61,790 nt of DNA from Streptosporangiaceae bacterium (GCA_049284535.1 JBAPYC010001315.1:1-61790), one strand, 5' to 3'; counted from the stretch's first letter, positions 10,651-58,403 are shown. Made by a program: numbers and translations. Notes: generated by a model not told the origin, from the letters alone.

Positions 10651-10735
10651 GTCCGGGTGGCGGAATAGGCAGACGCGCTAGCTTGAGGTGCTAGTGCCCC
10701 AAAAGGGCATGGGGGTTCAAGTCCCCCCTCGGACA
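10651..10735 (+). tRNA. tRNA-Leu, anticodon GAG (class II, long variable arm), CCA not encoded
   Basis: Cloverleaf folded by hand. Acceptor GTCCGGG/CTCGGAC (one G-U pair). D arm GCG..CGC. Anticodon stem CTAGC/GCTAG with loop TTGAGGT. Variable arm TGCCCCAAAAGGGCAT. T arm GGGGG-TTCAAGT-CCCCC. Discriminator A. Confidence 0.9.
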
Positions 10736-11071
10736 CGACATTTGCGCAGGTGAGAGGGTCGTAATTGCCTCTCCCGCACAGCTTTGATGCCGATCTGATG
10801 CTTGCGGCCCACCGGTCATGATTCCGCCTCCCATCTCAAGCCGCTGGCGTGCTTGACCGGTAGCCCACTCGACGTCATCGAGACGGCTCGAGATGAAGTG
10901 CTCCTCGCCATCGGCGGTCCATAGCGTCCATCCGTCGCGGTGGACCGGATGGTAGCCGTACTCCAGGATGGGCGTTCCGTGCTCATCGAATGTGACGTCG
11001 GCCGGGTCGACGTCATCGTCGAAGCGGCGGCCGTTGAGGTCGGCCAGGACCACGATCCTGATCTCGGTCAT
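10691..11071 (-). CDS. Hypothetical small protein; its 3' end reads through the complement of the tRNA (possibly a junction artefact)
   Basis: MTEIRIVVLADLNGRRFDDDVDPADVTFDEHGTPILEYGYHPVHRDGWTLWTADGEEHF... ATGA overlap with the stop of the integrase remnant. The last ~15 codons are tRNA antisense. Confidence 0.25.
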   Translation of the reverse strand: MTEIRIVVLADLNGRRFDDDVDPADVTFDEHGTPILEYGYHPVHRDGWTLWTADGEEHFISSRLDDVEWATGQARQRLEMGGGIMTGGPQASDRHQSCAGEAITTLSPAQMSCPRGDLNPHALLGH

Positions 11072-11250
11072 GCTTGCGCACCTCCGACTAGGGCCGCGAA
11101 CCGGTCGGCGGCATCACGCTGGCTGCCTGGCAGAACGTGCGCGTAGACGGTCATCGTCACCACGGCGCTGGCATGGCCGAGCCGGGCGGATACGACGTGC
11201 ACCGGCTCACGGGCCGTGAGAGTTTGTGCCCTCTGTGTGTCTCTGTTCGT
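11068..11250 (-). pseudogene. Tyrosine recombinase/integrase, C-terminal remnant only
   Basis: ...EPVHVVSARLGHASAVVTMTVYAHVLPGSQRDAADRFAALVGG is the LGH-x(n)-Y catalytic-Tyr box of phage-type integrases. Upstream of it the ORF has no integrase-like sequence. About 330 nt from the tRNA 3' end. Confidence 0.7.
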
Positions 11251-11926
11251 GGAACGAATGTTGTCGGCTGCTCTGTCTGGCAGCGCTCGGACTGCTGTCG
11301 CGGACGGTGGCGGCGGAGTCGATAAGGCAACTAAGAGCTCGCCGGGCGGCGCAGACGCCGACTTCGTTTTGATTAATCCCGTGCCGGTGCAGACCTGGTC
11401 CTGGTTCTTAGCGGCGCCACTGCGATCCGGGAGACGCCGGGTTGGCCAATTCTTCACGAGAGCTAACGGCGTCAAGCCGAGGCCGCCGCCCGCAGCTCGG
11501 CTCAGTAGGACAGCTTGGGGCAGTCTTTCATCACTCGAGTGACCCTGCCTAGTTAGAAGAGCAGATCCGCACAGGCGTGCTGACTCTTGGCGAGATCATC
11601 GACCGTGATGACCTCTCAAGGAATCTTCGCGAGAACGCTCTTCCGATGACGCTCGGAGAAGTCACGTCGGTCACCTACCCGGCATTCCTGGCTGCACGCC
11701 GCAAGCTCATGGCAGCCAAGATCCGCGAGTACTATGAGCGGTTGTGAGCAAGTTCCACGACCATGGCAGTCAGGCGCCGCTGTGCACCACTGCTAAGGCT
11801 GGCTGGCCGCGCGGGGCCTGGTCACCGCCCGCCAGGCTGGTGCCCTAGCCGGCTAACCCGCCCCCGATCCGGCCGCCACCGCCGACCGGCCACAGCAGTC
11901 CGCCCAGTCCGGGACCCTGGGTGTTA

Positions 11927-13228
11927 TCAGCCCATCACATTGCCCGCGCTCTCCACATGGGGCTGGCGAAGGCGTGAGTAGTGCCCGAGGTTTATTTCGT
12001 TCTTGGTAAAGTGTCCGCTAAACACAACCGGATCCGAGTCGTGATCGTGTCCGTTTTCGCAAGCGTGTACCAGGGCCGCTATAAAGCGGCCGGCGACAGG
12101 AGCGTTTTTGAACTGGTTGCCACTCGTGCCGATGGCCACATAGAACCCAGCCAGTGAGGTGCGGTCGTAGACCGGGATCCAGTCGTCGGCGACGTCATAG
12201 AGGGCAGCGTAACCAACGGGACGGGGCGGGATGCCCAGCGACGGGATTCTTCGGGCCAGGCGGAGTACCTGCGCATCCCACGTCTGCGCGGTAGGCTCGG
12301 CCTCGAAAACATCCGGGTCATCTATCCAGTGGAGGGCATCGCATTCCGGCTCCGCGCTTCCAACGATAAGCTGCCCGCCGAAGTGAGATCTGAAGTATGT
12401 TCCCAGGTCTCCGTCCGTGACAGCGGGACCCAGCTCGCCGCCCGCGTAGCCAGGCGGCGCAGGCACGGAATGGACTTCCTGCCGCAGTGGGCGGGTTCGG
12501 ATCCGGAATTCTCCTGGGACGCCCGCAAGAGCGTTAACCTGACCGGAGTACGGGCCCGCCGCATTGACCACGACGGGAGATTGAATCACGCTTCCTGAGC
12601 GCAGCATTACGCCCTGGACCCGCCCATTCTTCTGGAGGATCGCCACGACCTGTTCGCGGAGCTGAACTTCGGTCCCGCTCCGCTCCGCCGCCGCCATGAG
12701 GTTCCTCGCCGCCAGCTGCGGGTCGTCAATGAACCCGCCGTCGGGCGTGTAGTAGGCACCGAGTTCGCCATCGGCATCGGTCCAGAATGCAGCGTCCGTG
12801 ACCGGTTTGGGCGGAGCGTACCGTCCGGGATCCATACCCGGCACCCGCTGCCGGATGGTCTCAGCATCCCAGCACTCGTACGGGACACCGACGCGGTCAA
12901 AGAGAGGCAGCACCCGCTCACGCTGGGTACTGCCATCAAGGATCAGGCAGCCTGTCTTCATAAATCTGGCCAGGGATTCCTCAGGACGGCTGCCCAGATA
13001 TTCGGGCCAGCCCTCCCAGCTGAACTTGGCTTCCCAGGAAGCGGCCACGCCCTCGAAGGTCGAGTAGTGAAAGCGGACGATGCTTGCGGACGAGCTGGTA
13101 GAGCCCGAACCGACACCGCCCAGCCGGTCGATAGCCACGACCCGCAGTCCAGTCTGTGCGAGCTCGTAGGCGACAGCGGCACCGATGACCCCGGTTCCAA
13201 TCACGACTGCGTCGGCTGTCTGCGTCAC
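11927..13228 (-). CDS. FAD-dependent oxidoreductase (DAO / sarcosine-oxidase-beta-like family)
   Basis: N-terminal dinucleotide fold DAVVIGTGVIGAAVAYELAQTGLRVVAIDR. 433 aa. Confidence 0.75.
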   Translation of the reverse strand: MTQTADAVVIGTGVIGAAVAYELAQTGLRVVAIDRLGGVGSGSTSSSASIVRFHYSTFEGVAASWEAKFSWEGWPEYLGSRPEESLARFMKTGCLILDGSTQRERVLPLFDRVGVPYECWDAETIRQRVPGMDPGRYAPPKPVTDAAFWTDADGELGAYYTPDGGFIDDPQLAARNLMAAAERSGTEVQLREQVVAILQKNGRVQGVMLRSGSVIQSPVVVNAAGPYSGQVNALAGVPGEFRIRTRPLRQEVHSVPAPPGYAGGELGPAVTDGDLGTYFRSHFGGQLIVGSAEPECDALHWIDDPDVFEAEPTAQTWDAQVLRLARRIPSLGIPPRPVGYAALYDVADDWIPVYDRTSLAGFYVAIGTSGNQFKNAPVAGRFIAALVHACENGHDHDSDPVVFSGHFTKNEINLGHYSRLRQPHVESAGNVMG

Positions 13229-13358
13229 TCAATAGTCCTCTCGGACTAGGTCGACGGTCACGCTCACAGTATCCACCTGCCGTGCCGCCAGCCTCACGCG
13301 CTACCCTGGCGAACGATCCAAGCCGGCCCTACCTCCCACCTTGGATGGCAGCTGATCT

Positions 13359-14135
13359 GTGGACATCGCCGACTTCAGCCTCGACCTGTTCTCTCTCGTC
13401 GGGCGTAACGCCCTGGTCACCGGCGGCAACACTGGCCTGGGCCGGGCCTTCTCGGTGGCCCTGGCCAAAGCCGGCGCTGACGTATTCGCGGTCGCCCTGG
13501 CCGAGGACGACGGCACCACCCGGACCCTGATCGAGGCCTCCGGACGCCGGTTCGTGTTCGAAAAAGCCGACATCACCCAGCCGGGCGTGCCAGCCGCCAT
13601 CACCCGGAGCTGCGTGGAGGCGCTGGGCTCGGTCGACATCCTGGTCAACTCCGCCGGCATCAACCTGCTGGCTGACGTGGCGGAGTTCGGCCGTGACCGG
13701 TGGGACCCGATGGTGTCGGTCAACCTGACCGCCGCCTTCGAGCTTGCCCACGAGGCCAGCCGGTTCATGATCGGGCAGCGGTCCGGCAAGATCATCAATA
13801 TCGCGTCGCTGTTCTCCTTCCTCGGCGGGCGGCGCTCACCTGCCTACGCCGCGACCAAGGCCGGGATCGCGGGCTTCACCAAGGCCTACTGCGACGAGCT
13901 GGCGGCCTGCAATATCCAGGTCAATGCCATCGCGCCGGGATACCTCAAGACCGCCATCACCGAAGCGACCCGGGCCGATCCCGAGGCCGACCGCCGCATC
14001 GTCGAGCACATCCCCGCGGCCCGCTGGGGGGAGACCGCCGACCTGATGGGGGCGGTGGTCTTCCTGGCCAGCCGGGCCTCGGACTACGTCAACGGCCACG
14101 TCCTGGTGGTCGACGGCGGCTACCTTGTCCGCTGA
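13359..14135 (+). CDS. Short-chain dehydrogenase/reductase (KduD-like)
   Basis: ALVTGGNTGLGRAF (TGxxxGxG), NSAG, and S...YAATKAG (catalytic YxxxK). GTG start. Confidence 0.8.
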   Translation: MDIADFSLDLFSLVGRNALVTGGNTGLGRAFSVALAKAGADVFAVALAEDDGTTRTLIEASGRRFVFEKADITQPGVPAAITRSCVEALGSVDILVNSAGINLLADVAEFGRDRWDPMVSVNLTAAFELAHEASRFMIGQRSGKIINIASLFSFLGGRRSPAYAATKAGIAGFTKAYCDELAACNIQVNAIAPGYLKTAITEATRADPEADRRIVEHIPAARWGETADLMGAVVFLASRASDYVNGHVLVVDGGYLVR

Positions 14136-14166
14136 CCGCGCAGCTACCCGGAGAGCGACCTTCGCC

Positions 14167-15630
14167 ATGGCCCCATCCCGATCCCCGCTGACCCGCAAGT
14201 CGATCATCGACGCGATGACCGGACTCCTCGGCGCGACCGCCGTCGACACCCGCGACGAGCAGCTCAGGCAGGCCAGCGTCGACCGGTTCCGCAAGTACAC
14301 CGCCGTACACGGCATCTACGACGGGCCGATCCCGGCCGCGATCGTTTACCCCTCTTCCACGGCCGATGTGGCGGCGGTGCTGCGGTTCGCCGAGCAGAAC
14401 CTCGTCAACATCGTGCCGCGGACCGGAGGGACCGCCACCGAAGGCGGCCTGGAGACGGTGATCGAGGACAGCCTCGTGGTGGACGGGTCGCGGATGAACG
14501 CGATCCTGTCCGTCGACCCGGTGGACATGATGGCCACCGTGCAGTGCGGCGCCGGCCTCCAGGACCTGGAGGACACCGTCCGGGCCCGGGGCCTGACCAC
14601 CGGGCACTCGCCCCAGTCCAAGCCGCTGGCCCAGCTGGGCGGCCTGGTCGCCACGCGCTCGATCGGCCAGTTCTCCACCCTCTACGGCGGCATCGAGGAC
14701 CTGGTCGTGGGCCTGGAGGCGGTCTTCCCCGGCGGGCAGGTGGCCCGGATCAAGAACGTGCCGCGGCGGGCCGCGGGTCCGGACATCCGCCACATCGTCA
14801 TCGGCAGCGAGGGCGCGCTGTGCTTCATTACCGAGGTGACGGTGAAGCTGTTCCCCTATCAGCCGGAGAACAACCGGTACTTCGGGTTCCTGGTGGAGGA
14901 GTTCGCCGATGGCATCGACGCGCTCCGCGAGCTGATCACCGCGGGCTACCGGCCGTCGGTGTGCCGGGTCTACTCACCCGAGGACGCCCGCCAGCACTTC
15001 GCCGGCTTCTACCGGGGCCAGAACGTCGTCGTGCTGGTGGCTGAGGGCCCCGAGCCCATCGCCGCGGCCACCGCGGCGGCGATCAGGGACCTGTTCGCCG
15101 GCCGCGGCCACGAGCGTGTGGACGACGACCTGATCCGGCGGTGGTTCGAGAACCTCAACTGGGGCCAGGACAAGATCGACGCCGAGAAGGCCGATATGCT
15201 CGCCCACGCCCGCCTCGGCTACACCACCGAGGTCTCCGTCGACTGGTCGCGGGCTGCGGGCCTGTTCGCCGCCGTAATGAGCCGGATCCGCGGCGAGTTC
15301 CCGCGGGCCGGTGACCTGACGATGCTCGGCGCCCATTCCTCGCACAGCTACCAGACCGGGACCAACCTGTATTTCGTCTACGACTACGAGATCAGGTGCG
15401 GCCCGCGCGAGGAAATCGAGGTCTACCACAAGCCGCTGAACGCGATCATCGTCGAGGAAGCGCTGCGGGCGGGCGGGTCGATGGTGCACCACCACGGGAT
15501 CGGCAAGTACCGCACCCAGTGGGTGGCCGACGAGCACGGCAGTGCCTACTGGCTGCTGACGACCCTGAAGCAGGCGTTCGACCCCCAGGGTGTGATGAAC
15601 GCGGGCACCATCTTCCCGCTGCCGTCATGA
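14167..15630 (+). CDS. FAD-linked oxidase (GlcD / alkyl-DHAP-synthase-like, FAD_binding_4 plus FAD-oxidase_C)
   Basis: AIVYPSSTADVAAVLRFAEQNLVNIVPRTGGTATEGG...HHHGIGKYR...LKQAFDPQGVMNAG. The ATG at 14167 is chosen because the track start at 14125 overlaps the SDR gene. Confidence 0.75.
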   Translation: MAPSRSPLTRKSIIDAMTGLLGATAVDTRDEQLRQASVDRFRKYTAVHGIYDGPIPAAIVYPSSTADVAAVLRFAEQNLVNIVPRTGGTATEGGLETVIEDSLVVDGSRMNAILSVDPVDMMATVQCGAGLQDLEDTVRARGLTTGHSPQSKPLAQLGGLVATRSIGQFSTLYGGIEDLVVGLEAVFPGGQVARIKNVPRRAAGPDIRHIVIGSEGALCFITEVTVKLFPYQPENNRYFGFLVEEFADGIDALRELITAGYRPSVCRVYSPEDARQHFAGFYRGQNVVVLVAEGPEPIAAATAAAIRDLFAGRGHERVDDDLIRRWFENLNWGQDKIDAEKADMLAHARLGYTTEVSVDWSRAAGLFAAVMSRIRGEFPRAGDLTMLGAHSSHSYQTGTNLYFVYDYEIRCGPREEIEVYHKPLNAIIVEEALRAGGSMVHHHGIGKYRTQWVADEHGSAYWLLTTLKQAFDPQGVMNAGTIFPLPS

Positions 15631-17081
15631 AGCCGTACCTGCTGGCCATCGACAACGGCTCGCAGAGCACCAAGGTGACCATCTTCGACGCCCGCGGCCG
15701 GGTCCTGGCCGCGGCCAGCAGACGGCTTGAGCCCTATGACATCTCGGTGCCGGGGCATGCCGTCCACCCCGATGACGACATCTGGGAGTCCATCGCCGGC
15801 GCCTGCCGTGACGTCATGGCCGCCTTCCCCGGCAGTCTCGCCGACATCGCCGCAGTGGGCCTGTGCACCATCCGCTTCTGCCGGGCCCTGCTGAGGGCCG
15901 ATGGCAGCCTGGCCGAACCGGTACTGAGCTGGATGGACGAGCGAGTCGCCCGGCCCTACCAGGCCGACAACCCCCGAGCCCGCTACGTCACCACCTCCTC
16001 CGGTTACATCACCCACCGCCTGACCGGTCAGTTCACCGACACCGCGGCCAACTACGAGGGCATGTGGCCCATCGACCATGACACGGCGGCCTGGCCGGAC
16101 GATCCCGCTGCCTACGCCGCCGCCGGCATGCCGCGCGACATGCTCTTCGACTTGGTCCCCCCGGGCGGCCGGCTCGGCCAGGTGACCCCTGAGGCGGCCG
16201 GGGCCACCGGCATCCCGGCTGGCCTGCCGGTGTACGCCACGGCCAACGACAAGGCCGTCGAGGCGCTGGGCAGCGGCCTGGACGACGACGGCACCGTGCT
16301 GCTGTCGCTGGGCACCTACATCGCGGCCATGACCATCGGCTCGTCCTCATCCAGCGCGGACGGCAGCTACTGGGCCAACTTCGCGGCCCGGCCCGGGACC
16401 TACCTGTACGAGAGCACCGGGATCCGCCGCGGCATGTGGACGGTCAGCTGGTACCGGACCCTGCTGGAGGGGCCAGGCGGCGAGTCAGCCGCCGGGACGG
16501 CGAACCTGGAGACAGCGCACCTGGAGGATGGCCTCAACGAGGCGGCCGGCGAGCTGGCGCCGGGCAGCAACGGGCTGCTGACCATCCCGGACTGGCTGGC
16601 ACCCGGGCAGGCGCCCTGGCGCCGCGGCGCGCTGCTGGGCTTCGACGGCAGCCAGGGGCGCGCCCACATCTACCGCTCCATCCTCGAGGGCATCGCCCTG
16701 ACCATGGCCAACAACACCGCGGCCATGGAACACGCGCTAGGCCGCCGGCTCTCGCCCGTGCTGGTGTCCGGGGGCGGGTCCCGTTCTGACCTGATGATGC
16801 AGATCGTCACCGACGTCTACGGCCGCCCCGCTCGCCGTACCACCGTCAACGACGCCGCCGGCCTCGGCGCGGCCATCTGCGCCGCCGTCGGCCACGGCAT
16901 CTACCCCGGCTGGGACCAGGCCACCGCCGCGATGGTCAGCCCCGGCCAGCAGTTCACCCCAGACCCCGGGGCCGTCCGCGCCTACCAGCAGATTAACCAG
17001 GTCTACGCCACCCTGACCGGTTACACCGACCCGCTGTTCCGCTCGATGGCCGACGGCTTGACCGGCCTGGACCGCACGTGA
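15627..17081 (+). CDS. FGGY-family carbohydrate kinase
   Basis: MKPYLLAIDNGSQSTKVTIFDARG...GGGSRSDLMMQIVTDVYGRP. ATGA overlap with the preceding gene. Confidence 0.8.
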   Translation: MKPYLLAIDNGSQSTKVTIFDARGRVLAAASRRLEPYDISVPGHAVHPDDDIWESIAGACRDVMAAFPGSLADIAAVGLCTIRFCRALLRADGSLAEPVLSWMDERVARPYQADNPRARYVTTSSGYITHRLTGQFTDTAANYEGMWPIDHDTAAWPDDPAAYAAAGMPRDMLFDLVPPGGRLGQVTPEAAGATGIPAGLPVYATANDKAVEALGSGLDDDGTVLLSLGTYIAAMTIGSSSSSADGSYWANFAARPGTYLYESTGIRRGMWTVSWYRTLLEGPGGESAAGTANLETAHLEDGLNEAAGELAPGSNGLLTIPDWLAPGQAPWRRGALLGFDGSQGRAHIYRSILEGIALTMANNTAAMEHALGRRLSPVLVSGGGSRSDLMMQIVTDVYGRPARRTTVNDAAGLGAAICAAVGHGIYPGWDQATAAMVSPGQQFTPDPGAVRAYQQINQVYATLTGYTDPLFRSMADGLTGLDRT

Positions 17082-17127
17082 CCGTGCCCGTGGTGCTCGC
17101 GCCGTGTGAGTCTGCCTGCGGCCACCC

Positions 17128-49390: not shown

Positions 49391-49393
49391 GGC

Positions 49394-51190: not shown

Positions 51191-51250
51191 TCCCCCTCAC
51201 GGACGAACGCGGGGCTCCGCCATGCCGCGCTGAGATCAGCCCGTTCGACC

Positions 51251-51381: not shown

Positions 51382-51384
51382 CCC

Positions 51385-51545: not shown

Positions 51546-51555
51546 TATGCTGGGG

Positions 51556-51715
51556 TGGCGGCGCGCGGGCGGGCGTCGGCGGCTAGCTTGCGGGCCTGGG
51601 TCTCGGTGATCCACTGGCCGCCCACGGCGGGGTCCGCTCCGGAGTCGAGCGCCGCGCGGTACCGGGCTAGTTTCTGGTCGCAGTTGCCGATCTCCTCGGG
51701 AGGGTGATCGACGCA
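51556..51715 (-). pseudogene. Large serine recombinase, C-terminal coiled-coil fragment
   Basis: My reverse translation gives PPEEIGNCDQKLARYRAALDSGADPAVGGQWITETQARKLAADARP. It matches the C-D-x-[KR]-L-x-R-Y-R-A-A-L-[DE]-x-G-A-D-P motif near the C-terminus of actinomycete serine recombinases. Confidence 0.55.
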
Positions 51716-51950
51716 CGGTCGTCGCGGTTAGTAAGGCCTGCTCAGCCAGAAGATGGTGAGGAGGGAAGTGCCGGTGGTGGCCTGTCCAAATCAGCGAACC
51801 AGCCGGGCCGACCACCACCCAGGTCTCCCTGTACGCCCGAACGAGAGCGTAAGCGTGCTCATAGGACGCGACCGCCGCCGGCACCGCGCCCGCGGTAGAC
51901 CACTGATGATTTGATCTACCCCAGTCATCGCGCACCGCCAGCAGGAATGG

Positions 51951-52035
51951 CAAACTCCGTGGCCAGAGCGATGTTGATCATGTAGGTAAGGTGCGTGTCG
52001 CCCCTCGGACACGAATACAAGTCCTTGAGCTGCGA
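51951..52035 (+). repeat. Extended junction repeat containing tRNA-end core, copy R3
   Basis: caaactccgtggccagagcgatgttgatcatgtaggtaaggtgcgtgtcgcccctcggacac... About 87% identical over 62 nt to 56125..56186. Confidence 0.8.
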
Positions 52036-52085
52036 TTATTTTCATCCGATATTGCTATGCCAGCAAAACCGCAGCTCACGACCGT

Positions 52086-52110
52086 GAGGGTTTAACTCCC
52101 TCTCTGACAC
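52086..52110 (+). repeat. tRNA-like T-arm plus 3'-end remnant, copy R4
   Basis: gagggtttaactccctctctgacac has a perfect GAGGG/CCCTC stem, a 7-nt loop, and then CTCTGACAC. Confidence 0.6.
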
Positions 52111-52388
52111 ACTCCTACGTACATGCTTGCGTCATCACCCTCGCCGGACCTGAGCGAACCCGGGCGGCTACAGGGATGCAGGGATTCACGGCATACTGTG
52201 GAGCGGGATAGCCTCCACCTCTACAGGGACGGCCGTCGGCGTTCACGGTCAGCTCAAGCTTGACGGCCACGGACCCGACGTGGATGACCCAAGTGGCGGC
52301 GATGCTATAGGTAGCCAGAGGTCGCCATCGAACTCGCATTGACCGGGCTCAGGCCAAGAGCCCAGTAAGCGCGCCGCCGCTAGCCGCT

Positions 52389-52454
52389 GCGGATATCCGC
52401 GCTCGCGGATATATATCACGCAGGACTGCTACGCTGACTGCAAGCCGCGGATAT
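52389..52454. promoter_or_regulatory. Candidate operator: GCGGATAT motif three times, the first within a perfect 12-bp palindrome
   Basis: gcggatatccgc (52389..52400), gcggatat (52405..52412) and gcggatat (52447..52454). They lie 30-95 nt upstream of the GTG start at 52483. Confidence 0.35.
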
Positions 52455-52482
52455 CTTCACGGATAAGCTAGCTGGAGGCGTC

Positions 52483-54201
52483 GTGCAGACCGGACCGGGG
52501 CCTGACCAAGGCCTGCTTGAACGTGTTGCCCGTTGCATCGCCGCGGGTGAGTCGTTCGAGGTTGAGTTCAGGGGTGAGAGCCACACACCGCTGAAAGACC
52601 GAGACCTAGTTGAGGCGGTGGTCTGCCTGGCGAACGGCGCCGGGGGGCTTCTGCTCGTCGGGGTTGAGGACGATGGAACCGTCACCGGCGCTCGGCCGAG
52701 ACATGAGGCCGGGCGGACGGACCCCCTCCGCGTACAAGCCCTGGTCGCGAACCTGACGCAACCACCGTTGCCGGTATCTGCGGCTGTCGTCGAGGTGGCG
52801 GGGCAGGAAGTCCTGGCAGTCGATGTCCCGGTCAGCCCCCGCGTTGTCGGCACTACGCGGGGCACGTATGTGCGACGGGCATTGGCAGGTGACGGGAGCC
52901 CGAAGTGCCTGCCCTATCACGCTCACGAGATGCTCGCTCACGAGGTTGACCGCGGCGCGGTGGACTGGGCAGCGCTGCGCATCAGCGGGGCGGAGTGGTC
53001 AGATCTTGATCCACTTGAGTTCGAGCGGCTCAGGCAGATGGCGGGAAGCGCAAGCGGGGGCGCCGACCGAATCCTCGGCACGCTGGCGGATCGCGAGATC
53101 ACGAGCGCGTTGGGCTTTACACGGCACGACGCCGAGGTGACGACTGGTGCGCTGCTGTTGTTCGGGAAGGTGGACGCGATCCGGCGATTCCTGCCCACTC
53201 ACGAGGCAGCCTTCCAGGTAACGCGCGGGCTCGAGGTCGAAGTCAATGACTTCATGCCCCACCCACTCCTGAGGCTGGCCGAAGAGATGCTCACCCGGTT
53301 CAGGGCTCGTAACAGCGAGGCGGAGGCGGATTTCGGGATGCTTCGCGTGGCGGTCCCGGCCTACTCGGAAACGGCCTTCCGGGAAGCCTTGGCAAACGCC
53401 CTGGTCCACCGCGACTACACGAGGCGCGGAGCCGTGCACGCCCAATGGAGCGAGGACCAGCTTGAGATCTCCAGCCCTGGCGGCTTCCCCGCAGGAATAC
53501 GCGTGAACAACCTGCTCGTCGCTCCACCTCACCCGCGCAGCCCACTGCTTGCCGATGCCTTTAAGAGGGTGGGTCTCGTCGAAAGGACGGGCAGGGGCGT
53601 CAACCGGATGTTCGCCGAGCAACTCCGCGTGGGCCGCCCGGCGCCCGACTACGGCAGGACATCCGATGATCACGTCGTGGCCATCCTCCCCGGCGGCCCG
53701 GCGAATATGTCCATGACCAAGTGGGTCCTAGAGCAGGAGAACCAGCAAGGGGCTCCACTTCGTGTCCAGGAACTACAGGTTCTCGCAGAATTGCTGCGCG
53801 AGCGGCAGATGACAACCGCGGAACTCGCTGCCATCGTGCAGCGGACAGACGCCGAGACAAGGAACCTGCTCACCCGGATGGTGGAACGCAGCTGGGTCCA
53901 GGCACGGGGCGACGGCAAAGCCAGAAGCTGGCACCTGTCCGCCGCCGTCTACCGCGTGCTCGATGCCCCGTCCGGCTACGTCCGGGTACACGGCTTCGAA
54001 CCCTTGCAGCAAGAACAGATGGTCATCCAGTACGTGAAAGCCCACGGTCAGATAACTCGGAACGAGGCCGCCGAATTGTGCGGCCTCAGTCCGGACCAGG
54101 CCAACCGGTTGCTACGGCGCCTCGTCTCAGCTGGGAAGCTCGGCCAGCGGGGGGAAAACAAGGGACGCGTTTATATCCCGCCAGCCAGCCCTAAAAGTTG
54201 A
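52483..54201 (+). CDS. AlbA_2 (Schlafen-like) / HATPase_c_4 / C-terminal wHTH protein ('RecG-like putative transcriptional regulator' family)
   Basis: GESFEVEFRGESHTPLKDRDLVEAVVCLANGAGGLLLVGVEDDGTVTGARP (AlbA_2)...FREALANALVHRDYTRRGAVHAQWSEDQLEISSPGGFP (HATPase_c_4)...C-terminal helix-turn-helix-like segments. GGAGG lies 5 nt upstream of GTG 52483. Confidence 0.75.
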   Translation: MQTGPGPDQGLLERVARCIAAGESFEVEFRGESHTPLKDRDLVEAVVCLANGAGGLLLVGVEDDGTVTGARPRHEAGRTDPLRVQALVANLTQPPLPVSAAVVEVAGQEVLAVDVPVSPRVVGTTRGTYVRRALAGDGSPKCLPYHAHEMLAHEVDRGAVDWAALRISGAEWSDLDPLEFERLRQMAGSASGGADRILGTLADREITSALGFTRHDAEVTTGALLLFGKVDAIRRFLPTHEAAFQVTRGLEVEVNDFMPHPLLRLAEEMLTRFRARNSEAEADFGMLRVAVPAYSETAFREALANALVHRDYTRRGAVHAQWSEDQLEISSPGGFPAGIRVNNLLVAPPHPRSPLLADAFKRVGLVERTGRGVNRMFAEQLRVGRPAPDYGRTSDDHVVAILPGGPANMSMTKWVLEQENQQGAPLRVQELQVLAELLRERQMTTAELAAIVQRTDAETRNLLTRMVERSWVQARGDGKARSWHLSAAVYRVLDAPSGYVRVHGFEPLQQEQMVIQYVKAHGQITRNEAAELCGLSPDQANRLLRRLVSAGKLGQRGENKGRVYIPPASPKS

Positions 54202-54502
54202 CCTCGCTGTCTTAGCTTGTTATTTAAGCTGGCTGCCTGCGGGTTCTTGGCCTTGGTGGCTCAGACCGTTGGGAAGCGCAGAAGGTCGACTGCCAGGGTT
54301 GGCAAGGACAGGGTCAAGCTGCAGATTTGCGGAGTACCGGCTCAGCTGACCTGCCGTCGGCATCTGGTTGCACGACACGCCACCGCGTGTTGATTCTGGA
54401 CGGAGCCGTTCCGCTGACGGTGGTGTTCGGAGATCGCTGACTTCCCGGGACCGGAAGGGAATTCCCCGGCCGTGTGGCCCTTGGAGCCGCTAGTGTCATT
54501 GC

Positions 54503-54871
54503 GTGCCCGAGAGTACGAGCATCACAGGCCGGTGGCGTATCACGGAGATGGACAAATGGGATCAGGAGGCCGTCGACCTAGTCCAGCCCGGCTTCATCGA
54601 ATTCGGTGAGGACGGCCTCGGCGACCTGGGTTTCATCGTAGTGACGGGAGAGCTTGACTACCGCGACGCGGATCGTGATGGCAGGCCAGGGGTCGAGTTC
54701 TCGTGGCAAGGTTCTGACGAGGGCGACGAGGTAAGCGGTCGCGGCTGGGCCGCGCTCAACGCCGACGGCACGCTCGAGGGGCACGTCTACTTCCACCTTG
54801 GTGATGACTCCGCGTTCCGCGCCGAGCGGTTCAACGGAGCCGTCCAGACAATGGCCTACCCGATCGCCTGA
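54503..54871 (+). CDS. Hypothetical protein (122 aa, acidic, predicted beta-rich)
   Basis: ITGRWRITEMDKWDQEAVDLVQPGFIEFGEDGLGDLGFIVVTGELDYR...VEFSWQGSDEGDEVSGRGWAALNADGTLEGHVYFHLGDDSAFRAER. GTG start. I recognise the pattern as a recurrent uncharacterised family but cannot name it. Confidence 0.5.
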   Translation: MPESTSITGRWRITEMDKWDQEAVDLVQPGFIEFGEDGLGDLGFIVVTGELDYRDADRDGRPGVEFSWQGSDEGDEVSGRGWAALNADGTLEGHVYFHLGDDSAFRAERFNGAVQTMAYPIA

Positions 54872-54968
54872 AAGCTGCCGACTCGTTCAGCGCATCCACA
54901 GCCGCCCACGGGGGCTGGCTCGCGGTTTGCGATTTGCTTGACCTGCCTCTCGCCTACCATGAGTCGTC

Positions 54969-56063
54969 ATGGTCGCGAACCGGATGAACCGTGACGGGTT
55001 TTACGCCACGATGGCGCCGAGTGACGAAACTCGCCTCCGCAAGATCTTGTGGACCCTCTACTGGCGGGGAGACGCCCGGCTCCGCGAGCGCATCGAGGAC
55101 GAGCTGCGCCCGCCGGACCAGCTGAAGGTGAAGCCGAAGAAGGAAGTGCCTGCACCGGACACGGTGCTGAATGAGGTAACGGCGTTCGTCAAGCTGGCGA
55201 GGGACGGTGCATACATGGCCGGGGACCGCCGGGTGCACCACACCGAGCGGTCCAGGTGGCGACTCACGTTCCGTCGGCTGGCGGACGAAGCACTGGCGGC
55301 GCTTCAAGCCGACAATCCAGGGCCAGCGCAGCAAGCCGTCGCGGAGATAGTTGACCTTGCCTGCGAAACGAAGAGTTATGACTACTTCCACTCCGATGAC
55401 CCGGTGGAGGCCGCGAAATTCGTGGTGTCGGACGCTGTCGCCGTGCTGTGGGAGTCGGTGCTCCGTCACGACGGCTTCACGGCCTTCGCCCAGCGCGTTC
55501 CCGAACAGCTCATCCGCTGGGAGGCGGCTTACGGCTGGACCCGGCGAGGCTACGGCCAGGTGCCGGAAAAGGAGACCGCCCTGGGTGTCCTGCTTGCGCG
55601 GCTGCTCACCACGCCGGACATGTGGCGGACGTTTGCCGAGGCCTACCTGGCGGCGCTAGATGCGGCCGGACGGACGGCCCCGAAGCGATCGCGCATCATG
55701 TACGGAAGTTCCGATTTCGACGAGTCCCGCTACCGGCGCCAAGAGCGCGCCAAGAACCTCGCAGGCTGGCATGAGCTGCTGCTTGACCACTTCGGGGCGG
55801 GCCCCGAAGACGAGCTCCTCGGCCGACTCGCCGCGAGCCCGGGACTGGCCGGGCCGGAACTCACCTTTCTGCGCGCCCGCATCGCTGAGCGTCGCGGAGA
55901 ACGCACCCAGGCTGCGGCACTGGTCACTCAGTCCCTGAAGGAGCTGCCCGGTCATCCGGCCTACCTCAGCTTCGCCGCAGAGGTCGGCGCGGAACTTCCT
56001 CCCCGCGCACGCGACCTGCTATCCGAGCGCACTCGGTTCCCGGTGTCGCCGGACCACTCGTAG
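54969..56063 (+). CDS. Hypothetical protein (364 aa, helical)
   Basis: FYATMAPSDETRLRKILWTLYWRGDARLRERIEDELRP... Coding-like composition, no recognisable catalytic motif. The start could be ATG 54984. Confidence 0.5.
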   Translation: MVANRMNRDGFYATMAPSDETRLRKILWTLYWRGDARLRERIEDELRPPDQLKVKPKKEVPAPDTVLNEVTAFVKLARDGAYMAGDRRVHHTERSRWRLTFRRLADEALAALQADNPGPAQQAVAEIVDLACETKSYDYFHSDDPVEAAKFVVSDAVAVLWESVLRHDGFTAFAQRVPEQLIRWEAAYGWTRRGYGQVPEKETALGVLLARLLTTPDMWRTFAEAYLAALDAAGRTAPKRSRIMYGSSDFDESRYRRQERAKNLAGWHELLLDHFGAGPEDELLGRLAASPGLAGPELTFLRARIAERRGERTQAAALVTQSLKELPGHPAYLSFAAEVGAELPPRARDLLSERTRFPVSPDHS

Positions 56064-56124
56064 GCATTTGCCGCGAGCGCCGCCCCGATCCGCGCCGCTC
56101 ACCACACGTCACTCGTGGCAAGCG

Positions 56125-56210
56125 CAAACTCCTTGGTCAGAGCGATGTCGATCATGTACGTAAGTTGCGACTCGCTCCTCGGACACACATAACAAGCCTG
56201 TGACCTGGGA
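56125..56210 (+). repeat. Extended junction repeat containing tRNA-end core, copy R5
   Basis: caaactccttggtcagagcgatgtcgatcatgtacgtaagttgcgactcgctcctcggacac... Confidence 0.8.
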
Positions 56211-56262
56211 ATATGCATTTCGCTCTAGCTGCCCATATGACATCTATGCAGGTCAGAGCTAT

Positions 56263-56281
56263 AGGGGTTCAAGTCGGGTCC
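56263..56281 (+). repeat. tRNA T-loop-like remnant, copy R6
   Basis: aggggttcaagtcgggtcc retains GGGGTTCAAGTC of the tRNA T arm. The 3' core is degraded. Confidence 0.45.
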
Positions 56282-56423
56282 AGGTTGCGGAACGGTAACA
56301 TTAGCTCTCGTTCAGTCCCACAGATCACGCATGCCGGGCGCTGCCCGGCTGCTGTTGCAACGTCGGCTTCCGCAAGCCCGTCACTCCGCCGTGACCCGCC
56401 AACGGCTTCGTCACCAAGATCCC

Positions 56424-56452
56424 GGGCTTCTTGGTGCACTCCCTCCTCACAA
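56424..56452 (+). repeat. Degenerate tRNA-end remnant, copy R6', left partner of R7
   Basis: gggcttcttggtgcactccctcctcacaa versus R7 gggctttttggtgcagtcccccctcggacac. Confidence 0.55.
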
Positions 56453-56504
56453 TTAAGCCCCCGCGTCCGCTGCTGACCTGCTGTTACGTCCCGGCTACGG
56501 GCTC

Positions 56505-57665
56505 TTAGCCGGCCCGCCCGCGCCGGAATCCAGCCTCGGCGCAGGCGGCTTCGAGCGGGGCGATGCCGAAGGCTTCAACCGGCCCGAGCGCGCCCGCAAG
56601 CGGGGTGCCGTCGGCGGAGCGAACGCCGTCGGCGGCCGCCTTGCCCGCCGCCCAGCCCAGTATCTGGGCCGTGAACGAGTACGGATCCGCGCCGGTCAGA
56701 CGGATCGCGGCCAGATCCTCGCCGTCGGCATCGGCCGCGACGGCCACCACGTCCGAGCGGACGGGGCTGGGATTGCCCGGCGTGACCCGGCCGCGCTGCA
56801 CCCGCCGAGCCGCGGCTGCAAGCGCCCCGCGCGCCCCGGGCAGGTGGCCCATCGGCGCGTTGAGCACGGAGGCGTAGCTGACGGCTCTGCTCGCACGGCC
56901 GAACCAGCCGAGGTAGACGTCCACGTCAGTGATCTCCTGGCCGTCGCCGGTCCCCGCCGTCGGCCGAAGCCGGGGCAGCGCGAAATGCTCGGCCGCGCCC
57001 AGCGACACCGCCTCTCGCGCCTTGCCATCGATGGTGAACGATGCGACGTGGGCCGAGGTGCGCTCGGACACGATGCGCCCGCCGCGGAAGGCGTACCCGG
57101 GCTCGAGCAGCACGCCGAGCATTGACGCGCGGGTCCCGGCGCTCGCTGACCGCCGGAGGTCACCGCTCACGAAATAGCCGACTCGGACCCGGGCCGCGCG
57201 GGGCCCGGCCGCGTCGAGCGCGAGCGCCCCGGCCAGGTTCCCCGGCACGAAGTCGTAGCCGAATGCGGTCAGCAGCACCGCGCCGGTCCGTTCCGCCAGC
57301 GGACCGAAATCCTCGAACACCTGGCGGATGAACGGCGGCTCGCCGGCGGAGTCCAGGTAAACCGCGCCGGCATCAACCGCGGCGGCCACGATCGGTCGCC
57401 CGACTTGCAGGAACGGCCCCGCGGTGGACACCAGCACGTCACCGGGCCCGAGCAGGTCCCGCAGCGGCCCGGGCCGTTCGGCGTCGACGACCGCCGTCTC
57501 AGGCTCGGTCCCGCCGCCCGCCTGCGCCAGCCGGGCGGCCAGCGCCGACAGCCGACCCTGGTCGCGGCCCGCCAGGACCAAGCGCACCCCGCCGGCGACC
57601 AGCGCCTGCGCGGTCAGCGCGCCCGTGTAGCCGGTGGCGCCGTACAGCACGATCCGGCTCGCCAT
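56505..57665 (-). CDS. Saccharopine dehydrogenase NADP-binding domain protein
   Basis: MASRIVLYGATGYTGALTAQALVAGG (Rossmann fold). 386 aa. Confidence 0.75.
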   Translation of the reverse strand: MASRIVLYGATGYTGALTAQALVAGGVRLVLAGRDQGRLSALAARLAQAGGGTEPETAVVDAERPGPLRDLLGPGDVLVSTAGPFLQVGRPIVAAAVDAGAVYLDSAGEPPFIRQVFEDFGPLAERTGAVLLTAFGYDFVPGNLAGALALDAAGPRAARVRVGYFVSGDLRRSASAGTRASMLGVLLEPGYAFRGGRIVSERTSAHVASFTIDGKAREAVSLGAAEHFALPRLRPTAGTGDGQEITDVDVYLGWFGRASRAVSYASVLNAPMGHLPGARGALAAAARRVQRGRVTPGNPSPVRSDVVAVAADADGEDLAAIRLTGADPYSFTAQILGWAAGKAAADGVRSADGTPLAGALGPVEAFGIAPLEAACAEAGFRRGRAG

Positions 57666-57726
57666 GACATTAACCTACTCGCCGCCGCGCGACCGCCGGA
57701 AGGCCGTGGCGGCCGGGAGTAACCCG

Positions 57727-58237
57727 TCAGCTCCCCGGCGTCTGGCCGAAGATCGTGTCCGCGAAGCCGAGCATCTCGCCGAAGTCGGTGTCAGCGGAAA
57801 CTATCACCAGATCGTTGGCCGCCGCGTCCTCCAGGCTGGTGCGGTCAGCCGCAGTCAGCAGGCCCACATCACCGACGTGAGCAGCCTCGGACCCCGACTT
57901 GCCCAGGGCACGGCAACCTTGGGCGACGGGTTGGCGTCGATAAGAAGACGCACGACGGCTAGGCGGACTGGCCAGCGGGAGTTCACGTTCTTGCACGGCC
58001 GCCGCGGCGTACTCCAGCGCGGCCAGGACATCCACCCGGTCCAGGTACGGAAGTCAGCCCGGCAGCAAGCTGCCCCAGGACCGCGCTCGCCGTCACCCGC
58101 GTATCCCGGATGCACGGCAGGCCGCTCATCCGGTTCGGGTCGATGGTAATCCGCTCGTAAGCCACCCAGCTCAGACTGCGCTTCCCGGTCGTCCGGCGCC
58201 CGCGTGACGCGACGCGCCCGGGAAACTGCCCGGCCAC
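57727..58237 (-). pseudogene. Decayed DUF433 (antitoxin-like) / DUF5615 (PIN-like) gene pair with several frameshifts
   Basis: DUF433 pieces: ERITIDPNRMSGLPCIRDTRVTASAVLGQLAAG in one frame and VDVLAALEYAAAAVQE in another. DUF5615 pieces: RLLIDANPSPKV in one frame and AAHVGDVGLLTAADRTSLEDAAANDLVIVSADTDFGEMLG in another. Confidence 0.55.
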
Positions 58238-58372
58238 GCCGCGGAGACAACCTGGGTCAGAATCAAGTCACCCTTCACTTGCATTCCGTGGCAGGCGGGC
58301 GACTCCGCTCCACCGTCTTGCCCGTCTACTCACCGCTATTACACCAGCGAGAACTCCGCCGAAAGCAGCCAT

Positions 58373-58403
58373 GGGCTTTTTGGTGCAGTCCCCCCTCGGA
58401 CAC
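58373..58403 (+). repeat. Distal tRNA-Leu 3'-end copy R7 (17/17 identity to the tRNA end)
   Basis: gggctttttggtgcagtcccccctcggacac. The segment agtcccccctcggacac is identical to 10720..10736. Confidence 0.8.

Follow-up and report, generated by a model that had tools for sequence, protein, structure and literature searches.

The tRNA-Leu(GAG) gene and the segments behind it

The window, i.e. the whole stretch of 61,790 nucleotides analysed here, comes from a soil actinomycete (Streptosporangiaceae bacterium) and contains a tRNA-Leu(GAG) gene with an array of about 48 kb after it (Table 1). ARAGORN and Rfam agreed that the tRNA at the start of the array is intact, as an earlier note on this DNA had proposed. 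We count at least seven segments in the array and six junction cores that are still visible, instead of the five blocks first described. No core-like string was present in 21241-21540, between segments 1 and 2, and the junction near 21.3 kb is deleted.

Table 1. Features of the tRNA-Leu(GAG) locus.
Feature	Position	Strand	Basis or remark
Intact tRNA-Leu(GAG)	10651-10736	+	ARAGORN (only tRNA found); Rfam tRNA, 51.2 bits
Segment 1	10737-21350		Presumed newest, by position; right joint missing
Tyrosine-integrase C-terminal fragment, ~50 residues (…RLGHASAVVTMTVYAHV…)	11068-11250	-	ORF listing; reads toward tRNA
Segment 2	21351-30731		Pfam Resolvase, AbiEii, NTP_transf_2, PhdYeFM
Large-serine-recombinase fragment	21531-22253	-	Residues 18-259 of ~580; tblastn, Pfam Resolvase
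Duplicated N-terminal large-serine-recombinase piece, ~24 residues	22828-22899	-	tblastn
Core A1, gtgttcaagtccccctcggacac	30732-30754	+	Right joint of segment 2; 28.2 bits vs shuffled mean maximum 22.3
Module M, copy A	30755-30856	+	Left end of segment 3
Segment 3	30857-36089		R1-type left arm to ~31131, h-type right arm; Pfam
Core B, ggttcgtctccggcctcggacac	36090-36112	+	tRNA-end alignment with relatives
Segment 4	36113-51996		Left end of AbrB and tyrosine-integrase element; a-type right arm
Core C1, gtcgcccctcggacac	51997-52012	+	a-type arm before; 24.3 bits
Module M, copy C	52013-52110	+	Left end of segment 5
Segment 5	52111-56170		R1-like left arm, a-type right arm; Pfam
Core D1, ctcgctcctcggacac	56171-56186	+	a-type arm before
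Segment 6	56187-56452	+	No cargo; module M copy D, R3-type arm to ~56420, core D3
Module M, copy D	within 56187-56452	+	Part of segment 6
Core D3 with degenerate b-type arm	56424-56452	+	End of segment 6
Segment 7	56453-58369		b-type right arm; Pfam Sacchrp_dh_NADP
Core E, catgggctttttggtgcag and tcccccctcggacac	58370-58403	+	Last recognisable core; 17/17 match, 34.2 bits

The segments differed in their genes and in the state of their ends. Segment 1 begins with a dead tyrosine integrase beside the tRNA, followed (Pfam) by a DAO oxidoreductase, SDR, FAD oxidase, FGGY kinase, TetR, a dimethylglycine-dehydrogenase-like protein and a homocysteine S-methyltransferase. The left end of segment 2 holds large-serine-recombinase remnants, and its cargo comprises an AbiEii toxin with a Phd-like antitoxin, a nucleotidyltransferase and large unknown ORFs. 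Its c-type right arm (30571-30745) was shared with nine other contigs, including L129, in which a sequence 84% identical to 24933-26179 lies immediately beside the c-type arm. Segment 3 carries a histidine phosphatase, a glycosyltransferase, PTPS, a Zn-dehydrogenase-like protein and GTP cyclohydrolase II/RibD_C, with no recombinase detected by Pfam; its left arm (30857-31131) was found in eight contigs with differing left neighbours.

At the start of segment 4 the integrase is gone and the AbrB-like gene is truncated (36361-36594; tblastn with the AbrB-like proteins of L006 and L007, and NCBIfam AbrB at E=0.002). The cargo consists of PrpD, PEBP, DyP peroxidase, DUF4331, an alpha/beta hydrolase, a LuxR-type regulator, aconitase subunits, PEP mutase/ICL and IclR. 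Its right end contains an IS1634 piece (51420-51545; NCBIfam E=0.011), a serine-recombinase piece (51569-51718, corresponding to recombinase residues 440-494 by tblastn) and, before the a-type arm, a DUF2637 gene remnant (about 51791-51990), with 51791-52012 being homologous to the 5' part of DUF2637 genes in three contigs. The arm family at the start of this segment differed from that at its end, and segment 4 may have arisen by fusion of two or more elements. How the array divides into elements is partly guesswork, because segment 4 has mixed arms and no joint separates segments 1 and 2.

Segment 5 has a Schlafen/AlbA_2-HATPase_c_4 regulator-like gene and two unknown genes, with no recombinase by Pfam, and its arms CCTACGTACATG and CATGTACGTAAG matched. 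In L018, a homologue 79% identical to its last gene (54969-56063) lies 380 bp past the live tRNA; L187 carries an inverted copy. In segment 6, the alignment with the R3 arms of five contigs ended at about 56420, and that with L133 began at 56425, with a clear b-type arm in the latter. Segment 7 contains a saccharopine-dehydrogenase-like gene on the minus strand (56505-57665). The stretch 56177-57920, which includes module copy D and segment 6, was 97% identical to L196, and parts of it were 92-96% identical to L118, L125, L103, L111 and L133.

The composition of the array also deviated from its surroundings. The GC3 of the block genes was 0.78-0.84 (0.84 in segment 1) versus 0.91 in the conserved left flank, and that of the right-flank genes was 0.85. 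The earlier placement of the tRNA-end copies in lower-GC gaps held for seven of the nine sites, with a local GC of 0.57-0.58 at the six near 30.8, 52.0-52.1 and 56.2-56.3 kb and 0.63 at 58403 (window, 0.68), but not for 36112 and 56452 (0.68-0.69).

Copies of the tRNA end and the double-core module

The last 9-23 bases of tRNA-Leu(GAG) form the shared recombination core, and the tRNA itself is the attL side of the array. Direct repeats of this 3' end stand at the far ends of elements, as cores A1, B, C1, D1, D3 and E. All nine tRNA-end-like strings reported from first inspection were recovered on the plus strand, within 2 bases of where they had been placed, and the perfect 17-base match of the last copy was located at 58387-58403. 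The short sequence CTCGGACAC had eight exact matches, on the plus strand only, versus 1.10 +/- 1.09 (maximum 4) in dinucleotide shuffles. The 17-mer AGTCCCCCCTCGGACAC had five matches with at most 3 mismatches versus 0.38 expected. Using blastn-short with tRNA positions 10690-10736 as the query, we obtained four matches of at least 24 bits (58387-58403, 30734-30754, 56264-56275, and 52001-52012; plus strand only) versus 0.18 expected from 100 shuffles. The comparison with shuffled controls that had been proposed as a check thus came out with real counts above the shuffled ones.

The copies at 36103, 56177, and 30830 scored 20.3 bits each, and since eight real matches at that level compare with 4.8 expected, they were not significant singly. 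They were rescued by homology. The sequence 36090-36590 aligned with the tRNA 3' end and downstream flank of six relatives, starting 23 bases inside their tRNA, which accounts for 36103; the other two belong to a module that occurs more than 100 times elsewhere. The flanks of the remaining cores had counterparts as well. At core A1 the tRNA identity begins in the T loop, and the left flank was homologous to c-type arms in many contigs. The joint at core B was also present in L163 and L095, and together with its right flank it corresponds to the tRNA end and the start of an AbrB-integrase element in the six relatives. The a-type arm before core C1 was common to 17 metagenome modules.

Could chance in a GC-rich sequence, or some generic intergenic repeat, account for the short matches and leave the 48 kb as ordinary chromosome? 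Three sites taken singly are indeed no better than shuffled sequence, and one further copy of CTCGGACAC (see below) is itself probably chance. The probability of this explanation is nevertheless negligible, and we regard it as refuted by the shuffle counts, the blastn-short result and the flank homology: the counts exceeded every shuffle and fell on one strand only, the flanks of every site were homologous to joints beside the same tRNA elsewhere, and neither a module nor a core occurred on the M20 peptidase side of the tRNA, in the window or in 80 related loci.

As a separate observation, a "tenth" CTCGGACAC was present at 57063-57071, in a coding region with a local GC of 0.75. It is probably a chance match, because it is kept as coding sequence in L196 and L118.

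Three of the joints carry a conserved module of about 100 bp, here called M, which contains two cores and travels with the element to its right, of which it is the end nearer the tRNA. In copy A, a spacer with 10-bp inverted repeats (30772-30781 and 30816-30825) leads to a second T-arm-like core, A2 (30830-30856). In copy C the inverted repeats lie at 52026-52034 and 52070-52078 and the second core, C2, at 52086-52110; in copy D they lie at 56201-56207 and 56249-56255, and core D2 (56261-56281) is cut at the T loop. Module M was present in at least 120 metagenome contigs, and its subtype tracked the right flank (AMI of 0.61, versus 0.16 between module and left flank). Because the module belongs to the element on its right, A2, C2, and D2 are not separate scars. 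The repeats of the earlier note are therefore real, but its view of nine separate remnants did not stand for these three.

The double-core module lies outside the predictions of a simple accretion model. It may be asked whether it is an independent miniature element that inserts into CTCGGACAC at the tRNA or at older joints and duplicates the core, in which case the second cores would be insertion scars in their own right, as in the count of the earlier note. The module is bounded by two direct copies of CTCGGACAC and is of near-constant length; if it were removed, the a-type/R1 and e-type/R2 arms would form dyad-symmetric sites of about 50 bp around a single core; and R1- or R2-like arms come after a live tRNA both without the module, in L029, L003, and L038, and with it, in L013, L141, and L147. 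However, the module subtype co-varies with the sequence past the second core as expected for one unit, a 100-bp circle is implausible as a transfer intermediate, and no recombinase was associated with the module. We consider an independent miniature element quite improbable, and below we treat the module as belonging to its right-hand element.

The same site in related genomes

We compared the locus with related genomes and more than 120 soil metagenome contigs; the M20 protein of the nearest relatives was no more than about 85% identical, which puts the comparison above strain level. The same or nearly the same tRNA lies beside an M20 peptidase gene in more than 30 relatives, and the pair is kept in 80 loci that range from Streptosporangiales MAGs to Streptomyces. 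The DNA 3' of the tRNA varied in nearly all of these 80 loci. Five relatives (L024 with three cores) have their own series of displaced cores after the same tRNA, and in some relatives intact tyrosine integrases or large serine recombinases adjoin it. On this comparative sequence evidence, tRNA-Leu(GAG) is an integration hotspot in many relatives. Most Streptomyces loci have a hairpin and T run directly after the tRNA, an arrangement that looks like an unoccupied site. The empty site that had been predicted, with the tRNA directly followed by the DUF1206 gene, was searched for among the relatives and none was found. The right border at 58403 is therefore provisional, as the last visible core, and together with the right-flank GC3 this means that the array may exceed the window or that the flank itself is variable.

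Several blocks of the window recurred in other contigs with the same ends and with other neighbours, cargo or order. In L196, segments 6 and 7 are followed by an arm and E-like core and then by a serine-recombinase element, which in the window sits 35 kb closer to the tRNA. L118, L125, L103, and L111 have the same right end followed by other modules of type M, and L163 has the end sequences of segment 3 with different cargo. The left- and right-arm families at joints paired almost freely (AMI of 0.13 between left and right flanks). Together, the tRNA hotspot in relatives and the recurrence of blocks with the same ends supported the idea of serial integration.

The same data bear on whether the array, instead of growing stepwise in this lineage, was acquired as larger composites, by joint excision of accreted elements, or was shuffled by homologous recombination between strains via cores, modules or arms. 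Joints share 100-300 bp of conserved sequence between unrelated blocks, enough for RecA-mediated exchange; a module with segments 6-7 travels as a single piece in L196; and transfer of a whole composite is documented (PMC5704250). Shuffling fits poorly with a breakpoint that lies at the first core and is not spread over the arms, as the AMI values of the module with its two flanks indicate. Moreover, either process still needs site-specific integration at the tRNA to make the joints, and so it modifies and does not replace serial integration. We judge such an origin unlikely.

As first reported, every recombinase in the window is dead: one tyrosine-integrase C-terminus and three large-serine-recombinase pieces survive, and a scan of the window ORFs turned up no intact one. 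NCBIfam matched the tyrosine-integrase fragment weakly to the final 40 positions of the tyrosine recombinase XerS (E=0.0056), and neither Pfam nor PDB gave a match. The main serine-recombinase fragment (21531-22253) is frameshifted, and its C-terminal half and the adjoining att site are deleted; it lies 11 kb from the tRNA, with its joint deleted. It showed 81% nucleotide identity to a tRNA-adjacent pseudogene of L020 and, by tblastn, 50-56% identity to the intact recombinases of L003, L029, and L062, which are 582 aa long and lie beside the left joint and the live tRNA on the reverse strand. A 249-aa ORF of L003, without Pfam match, has a resolvase-like N-terminus (39% identity over 83 residues to the recombinase N-terminus); its counterpart was absent from the window. 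In L006 and L023, an AbrB-like gene followed by an intact Phage_integrase lies beside the live tRNA. Among 150 ORFs near such joints in the metagenome contigs, only three were integrases, a figure that simple decay explains less neatly than trans-mobilised cassettes would. The earlier note's view of the array as immobilised goes beyond what the window can show: wherever both arms of a joint survive, a recombinase from another part of the genome could still act on it.

Probable accretion at the tRNA and its known parallels

Taken together, 10737-58403 probably consists of at least seven decayed integrative elements in tandem, all of which entered through site-specific recombination at the 3' end of tRNA-Leu(GAG), a reading drawn from sequence comparison. 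Each incoming circular element would bring a further copy of the 9-23 bases at the end of the tRNA, and recombination inside the shared stretch would restore an intact tRNA at the left joint; the tRNA end present before would come to lie at the right joint, joined to the right arm of the element. Subsequent elements would reuse the rebuilt tRNA and push older elements outward, and the order of arrival would follow position. At least two types of recombinase probably acted, a tyrosine integrase paired with an AbrB-like small protein and a large serine recombinase whose reading frame runs into the tRNA T loop; their assignment to individual blocks is tentative. Deletions in this genome would then have removed or broken all recombinase genes and one joint, presumably with loss of mobility, while metabolic genes, regulators and toxin-antitoxin or defence-like genes were retained. 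Accretion at tRNA ends is a well-known route of bacterial genome growth, and comparable processes are described at tRNA and tmRNA hotspots (PMC3146451, PMC9513070, PMC5704250, bioRxiv 10.1101/2020.12.28.424599).

The Dehalococcoides ssrA islands (McMurdie et al. 2011, PMC3146451) stand in tandem downstream of one small-RNA gene, each bounded by a direct repeat of about 20 bp of the gene 3' end, with insertion in the T loop. Their integration module lies beside the left joint on the reverse strand, with a CcrB-like serine recombinase of about 540 aa first and a smaller one after it, and many islands without the module are read as cis-mobilisable or fixed (PMC3146451). The layout in L003 is similar, with the 582-aa recombinase beside the tRNA on the reverse strand and then the 249-aa ORF, and the identity at core A1 and the c-type joints starts at TTCAAG of the T loop, a likeness of position only. 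Unlike those islands, the present array has a tRNA and not a tmRNA as its target, an actinomycete as host, at least one tyrosine-integrase family at the same site, a double-core module, and recombinases that survive in the window as fragments only.

Tycheposons of Prochlorococcus are tRNA-targeting cargo elements with tyrosine and, more rarely, large serine recombinases (bioRxiv 10.1101/2020.12.28.424599). There, too, newcomers push older elements into the island, and fragmented integrases and partial tRNAs are scattered, but they belong to an unrelated phylum and have unrelated recombinases, our window showed no replication module, and the second-core module has no described counterpart in them. 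Integron cassette arrays offer an analogy only: at one fixed place in the chromosome, conserved recombination sites enclose variable cargo in a single orientation, and most units are without their own recombinase. Here, however, no resident integrase stands beside the array and the units are multi-gene with their own regulators. Membership in integrons was rejected, with an M20 peptidase gene upstream of the array and sites that are tRNA ends and not attC.

In Streptomyces, AICEs and defective AICEs accrete at tRNA genes (PMC9513070), and CIME/ICE accretion is known in streptococci (Pavlovic 2004, Bellanger 2011, reviewed in PMC5704250). No TraB/FtsK, Rep or other conjugation gene was found among the window ORFs (Pfam), which differs from AICEs, or in the 25 commonest families of the 150 ORFs near 120 joints, where DUF2637 was the only recurrent backbone gene. 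Among the features of tRNA-integrated islands, the locus shows the intact tRNA, the 3'-end direct repeats, variable occupancy and deviant composition, and the window is missing an intact site-specific recombinase gene beside a joint. As in AICE and CIME/ICE accretion, successive different elements share one site specificity with direct repeats between them, the element sets at one site vary by strain, and decayed forms keep both att sites without integration or transfer genes; likewise segments 3, 5, 6, and 7, in the manner of CIMEs, are bounded to left and right by recognisable arms and cores and contain no recombinase. The array would thus be a new example, real but ordinary, of site-specific accretion at a tRNA hotspot.

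The tRNA-Leu(GAG) locus and copies of its 3' end

Related loci were retrieved by a genome scan anchored on the M20 peptidase, with 10 kb of flank taken per locus. The scan yielded 80 loci ranging from uncultured Streptosporangiales (at most 85% protein identity) to Actinomadura and Streptomyces; an exact-protein look-up of the window's own M20 peptidase returned no record. The order holB-tmk-topA-M20-tRNA-Leu(GAG) was conserved among the related loci, and the content 3' of the tRNA was not. Inspection of translations and comparison with relatives identified holB-like, tmk-like, and topA-like genes on the minus strand as the conserved left flank of the window. ORFs were called by a heuristic based on GC3 and annotated with Pfam, by which the gene blocks following the tRNA were functionally unrelated to one another; DUF1206, diacylglycerol kinase, and PAP2 genes lay beyond the last core (the cores, A1 to E, being the tRNA-end-like sites downstream of the tRNA). 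Between topA and the M20 peptidase gene, a repetitive Gly/Ser/Thr/Cys-rich ORF (6537-7892) weakly matched Pfam ChpA-C (chaplin), its strand and frame being uncertain among several overlapping long ORFs.

Features of the tRNA-Leu(GAG) locus, with proposed segments (decayed integrative elements), cargo, module copies, and arm families
Feature	Coordinates	Sequence	Description
M20 peptidase gene	9149-10645		between conserved left flank and tRNA
tRNA-Leu(GAG)	10651-10736		+ strand; sole tRNA in the window (ARAGORN); Rfam 51.2 bits
Segment 1	10737 to about 21350		directly after the tRNA; right joint lost
Segment 2	to 30731		then core A1
Segment 3	to 36089		begins with module A; then core B
Segment 4	to 51996		then core C1
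Segment 5	to 56170		begins with module C; then core D1
Segment 6	to 56452		module D and arms only; ends in core D3
Segment 7	to 58369		then core E, then flank
Block 1 cargo			oxidoreductases, FGGY kinase, TetR, dimethylglycine-dehydrogenase-like protein, homocysteine methyltransferase
Block 2 cargo			resolvase fragment, then AbiEii and antitoxin, nucleotidyltransferase-type genes
Block 3 cargo			small pterin/riboflavin-like cluster
Block 4 cargo			PrpD, PEBP, DyP, DUF4331, hydrolase, LuxR, aconitase, ICL-like, IclR genes
Block 5 cargo			Schlafen/AlbA_2 protein and two unknown genes
Block 6 cargo			saccharopine-dehydrogenase-like gene
Module M copies A, C, D	30746-30856, 52004-52110, 56178-56281
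a-type left arm		ATCATGTAnGTAAG	at C1, D1
b-type left arm		GGCTTTTTGGTGCAG	at E, D3
c-type left arm		CACCGGTTTCCGTGTTCAAG	at A1
h-type left arm			at B
d-type, e-type left arms			outside the window only
R1 right flank		CTTACGTACATG	at A2, C2
R2 right flank		GAACCCTTTGGGCATGC
R3 right flank		GGGTCCAG	preceded by second core cut at the T loop; at D2
R4 right flank			directly after a single core, without module; starts an AbrB-integrase element, as right of B
L003 serine recombinase	8014-9762 (+), in L003
L003 tRNA	9743-9828 (-), in L003

The earlier note had listed nine downstream recurrences of the tRNA 3' end, and each of the nine strings it quoted was found within 2 bases of its reported position. 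The terminal 9-mer, CTCGGACAC, occurred 8 times in the window, on the + strand only, against 1.10 +/- 1.09 (maximum 4) in dinucleotide shuffles, and a 17-mer of the tRNA end with up to 3 mismatches gave 5 matches against 0.38 expected. With tRNA positions 10690-10736 as the blastn-short query against the window and 100 shuffles, four matches of at least 24 bits were obtained, all on the + strand (0.18 expected), the highest being 34.2 bits (58387-58403) and 28.2 bits (30734-30754); the best scores in shuffled sequence averaged 22.3. Sites 36103, 56177, and 30830, at 20.3 bits each at most, were non-significant alone; these three are validated by homology to joints elsewhere. An additional CTCGGACAC at 57063 lay within a coding region, as it also did in two relatives (L196 and L118), and was treated as chance because it was conserved as part of that region. 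The placement of the copies in lower-GC gaps was borne out at 7 of the 9 sites (local GC 0.57-0.63), but no dip was seen at 36112 or 56452.

Among related loci, most of those from Streptomyces (within L030-L080) carried a GC hairpin and a T run immediately 3' of the tRNA, an arrangement that looks like an unoccupied site. Displaced tRNA-end copies within 10 kb of the tRNA were found in L021, L024 (three copies), L030, L037, and L046. L030 had a 1.5-kb insert delimited by a repeated tRNA end together with the 6 bases that follow it. In L046, a complete Wadjet jetABCD system (DUF3375, DUF4194/MksE, SMC-like ATPase, JetD; 2180-8925) was the sole cargo between the live tRNA and the displaced core, and no integrase was found in that interval. 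Downstream of tRNA-Leu(GAG) in L034 (2453-3756; Actinomadura), at a distance of about 6 kb, was a cluster of eleven tRNA genes, which may be a mobile tRNA array sharing the hotspot.

Recombinases, joints, and reassortment of blocks

No intact recombinase gene was detected among the annotated ORFs of the window, only pieces. Assignment to serine recombinases is clear for the pieces at 21531-22253, 22828-22899, and 51569-51718, which share 45-67% identity with the intact proteins of relatives. The tyrosine-integrase piece adjoining the tRNA comprised about 50 residues with an LGH..T..Y.H motif and weakly matched the XerS C-terminus (NCBIfam, E=0.0056); it had no Pfam match, and a PDB sequence search was likewise empty. 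The IS1634-like piece was retained as a weak match (NCBIfam, E=0.011).

Directly after the live tRNA, relatives encoded two types of recombinase. The first, on the strand opposite to the tRNA, was a large serine recombinase (about 570-580 aa) whose domains were Resolvase, Recombinase, and Zn_ribbon_recom. It was intact in L003, L029, and L062, always abutting the tRNA-Leu(GAG) 3' end, and fragmentary in nine further loci including one Streptomyces (among them L020, L026, L038, L037, L008, L027, L011, and L066). In L003 the final seven codons and TGA stop of the gene were antisense to the T loop and end of the tRNA, and its reading frame therefore passes through the attachment site. Enzymes so tied to this 3' end would be candidate tools for site-specific integration in actinomycetes. 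The second type was a small AbrB-like gene with a Phage_integrase gene behind it; L006 and L023 had this pair, and L007 a truncated form.

In L005, L006, L007, L009, L015, and L023, the tRNA end and the adjoining start of an AbrB-integrase element aligned with window 36090-36590, the alignment beginning 23 bases inside the tRNA, which makes site B a former left joint of an element of this kind; the AbrB-like gene at B was cut at 36594, and its integrase was gone. The left flank of A1 matched the last 106 bases of L020, in which a decayed serine recombinase lay beside the tRNA. The joint between segments 1 and 2 was missing, with nothing core-like in 21241-21540. Segment 4 may be a fusion, since it had an R4 arm at its start, an a-type arm at its end, and stray IS and recombinase pieces.

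The comparison that the earlier note regarded as decisive, block-wise reassortment among relatives, gave a positive result: the same blocks recurred in other contigs with other neighbours, order, or cargo. L196, a soil metagenome contig like the others of L081-L200, was 97% identical to window 56177-57920 and 92% identical to 58261-58403. Its E-like core was followed by the left end of a serine-recombinase element (window 21518-21732, 92%), and its left neighbour also differed, indicating that element order differs between two close relatives. Part of the array was 95-98% identical in contigs L196, L100, and L185, which places close relatives in forest and peat soils. The gene and right end of segment 7 recurred in L118, L125, L103, and L111, followed by modules of another type. 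The match to L133 began at 56425, where a clear b-type arm and a DUF2637 remnant were found, showing that D3 is a real joint and 56187-56452 a cargo-less element. The AbiE pair was 84% identical in L129, adjoining a c-type arm; L163 and L095 combined this B joint with different cargo; segment 5's final gene had its counterpart in L018, 380 bp downstream of the live tRNA; and the diacylglycerol-kinase gene right of the array was 86% identical in L171, there 1.6 kb past the last core. Separately, about 340 bp of the window (57921-58260, from the saccharopine-dehydrogenase-like gene to the b-type arm) were absent from L196, L118, L125, L103, and L111.

We consider it likely that the array was built by successive site-specific integrations at the 3' end of the tRNA, in which several element families would have arrived one after another and subsequently decayed. 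Composites acquired already assembled, or homologous exchange from one array to another, probably played a part as well, without replacing serial integration as the main model.

A double-core module and its flanking arms

The sites at 30.8, 52.0, and 56.2 kb were pairs about 100 bp apart and mutually homologous, and define module M. In this unit the first core, CTCGGACAC, is followed after 13-17 nt by an inverted repeat of 10-bp units, TGACCTGCGG and CCGCAGGTCA, separated by about 34 nt; some 8 nt further on lies the second core, a T-arm-like GGGGGTTCAAGTCCCT-CTCGGACAC. Module M was also present in L013 and L024 (two copies, one directly after the live tRNA). A pattern scan of metagenomes detected it in at least 120 soil contigs, most of them short and unplaced, and a scan of viral contigs gave zero matches. 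Among the matches listed, 108 distinct copies had almost invariant spacings of 13/14, 40/41, and 8 nt, with freely varying loops and stems lacking compensatory changes. Such a module, very widespread and of fixed geometry, is predicted by no current model of tRNA-targeted integration.

A structured RNA was considered for module M. No Rfam family besides the tRNA reached the gathering threshold in the window, matches around module A were at chance level (E about 1), and the z-scores for folds of single sequences ranged from -2.8 to +0.2. Three base pairs beside the fixed stem paired no oftener than shuffled partners in the 108 listed modules, and what looked like a compensatory difference when copy A was compared with copy C was not general, so the RNA idea was dropped. 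A pseudo-tRNA was also rejected, the 5' acceptor strand being absent on inspection and ARAGORN finding nothing there. The fixed spacing, lack of covariation, and negative Rfam and folding results together favour a protein-DNA architecture over an RNA.

Sequences left of the first core fell into a few families, and left and right families combined almost freely. Dyads around the core were formed by the arm pairs a/R1, e/R2, and c/R4, which fits the two arms of one attachment site. The a/R1 dyad reads CATGTACGTAAG / CTTACGTACATG (window 51950-52130 and 56130-56190; consensus arms of L081-L200) and the e/R2 dyad GCATGCCCAA / TTGGGCATGC (consensus arms of L081-L200). A palindrome common to c-type and R4 arms, GGGGAAATTTCCCC, might be a binding site of the AbrB-like protein. 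Pfam annotation of 150 ORFs lying no more than 3.5 kb from modules gave 126 families in all, with DUF2637 present in 10 ORFs and Phage_integrase in only 3. A DUF2637 gene started about 60 nt left of many cores, with a window remnant at about 51791-51990. The proposal that left flanks are starts of long minus-strand genes was rejected, as the ORFs were mostly short and the recurrent gene was DUF2637; derivation of R1 arms from serine-recombinase C-termini was unsupported (z at most 3.4 in local protein alignment of translated arms with the C-terminal 160 residues of three intact recombinases).

Adjusted mutual information (AMI), which measures how well one feature predicts another, was 0.61 between module subtype and right flank and 0.16 between subtype and left flank. 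The subtype thus tracks the right flank and not the left, which places the reassortment breakpoint at the first core, and module M with its second core is the tRNA-proximal end of the element to its right. All nine remnants of the earlier count are present, but on the AMI evidence A2, C2, and D2 lie within elements and do not count as separate scars. The same co-variation with the right flank disfavours modules as independent mini-elements, a reading that fits the two direct cores per module, the arm dyads that module removal would restore, and the existence of live tRNAs that lack a module beside others that have one.

Less conservatively, though we think it unlikely, module M could be a functional portable landing pad and the locus an integron-like exchange platform in soil actinomycetes. 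Each cassette would then have a second copy of the tRNA end, T arm included, placed 100 bp in from the tRNA-proximal end and having protein-binding repeats of fixed geometry on its flanks. With a small set of reusable arms, mostly recombinase-less cassettes would be exchanged by tyrosine or serine recombinases acting in trans from other loci, and the host could survive the insertion of elements that fail to restore the tRNA.

Comparison with known systems

The window offers a clear, well-delimited case of accessory-gene build-up at a tRNA hotspot in a little-studied group of soil actinomycetes, the accumulated genes being metabolic, regulatory, and toxin-antitoxin or defence-like. The conceptual gain from the array is small, because accretion at tRNA/tmRNA genes is already well described; what deserves further attention is the double-core module, together with the serine recombinases specific to tRNA-Leu(GAG). 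In the tandem ssrA islands of Dehalococcoides, a reverse-strand serine recombinase lies beside the left joint and insertion occurs in the T loop (PMC3146451). Other known cases are the accretion of AICEs at Streptomyces tRNA genes (PMC9513070), the formation of CIMEs (PMC5704250), and tycheposons (bioRxiv 10.1101/2020.12.28.424599).
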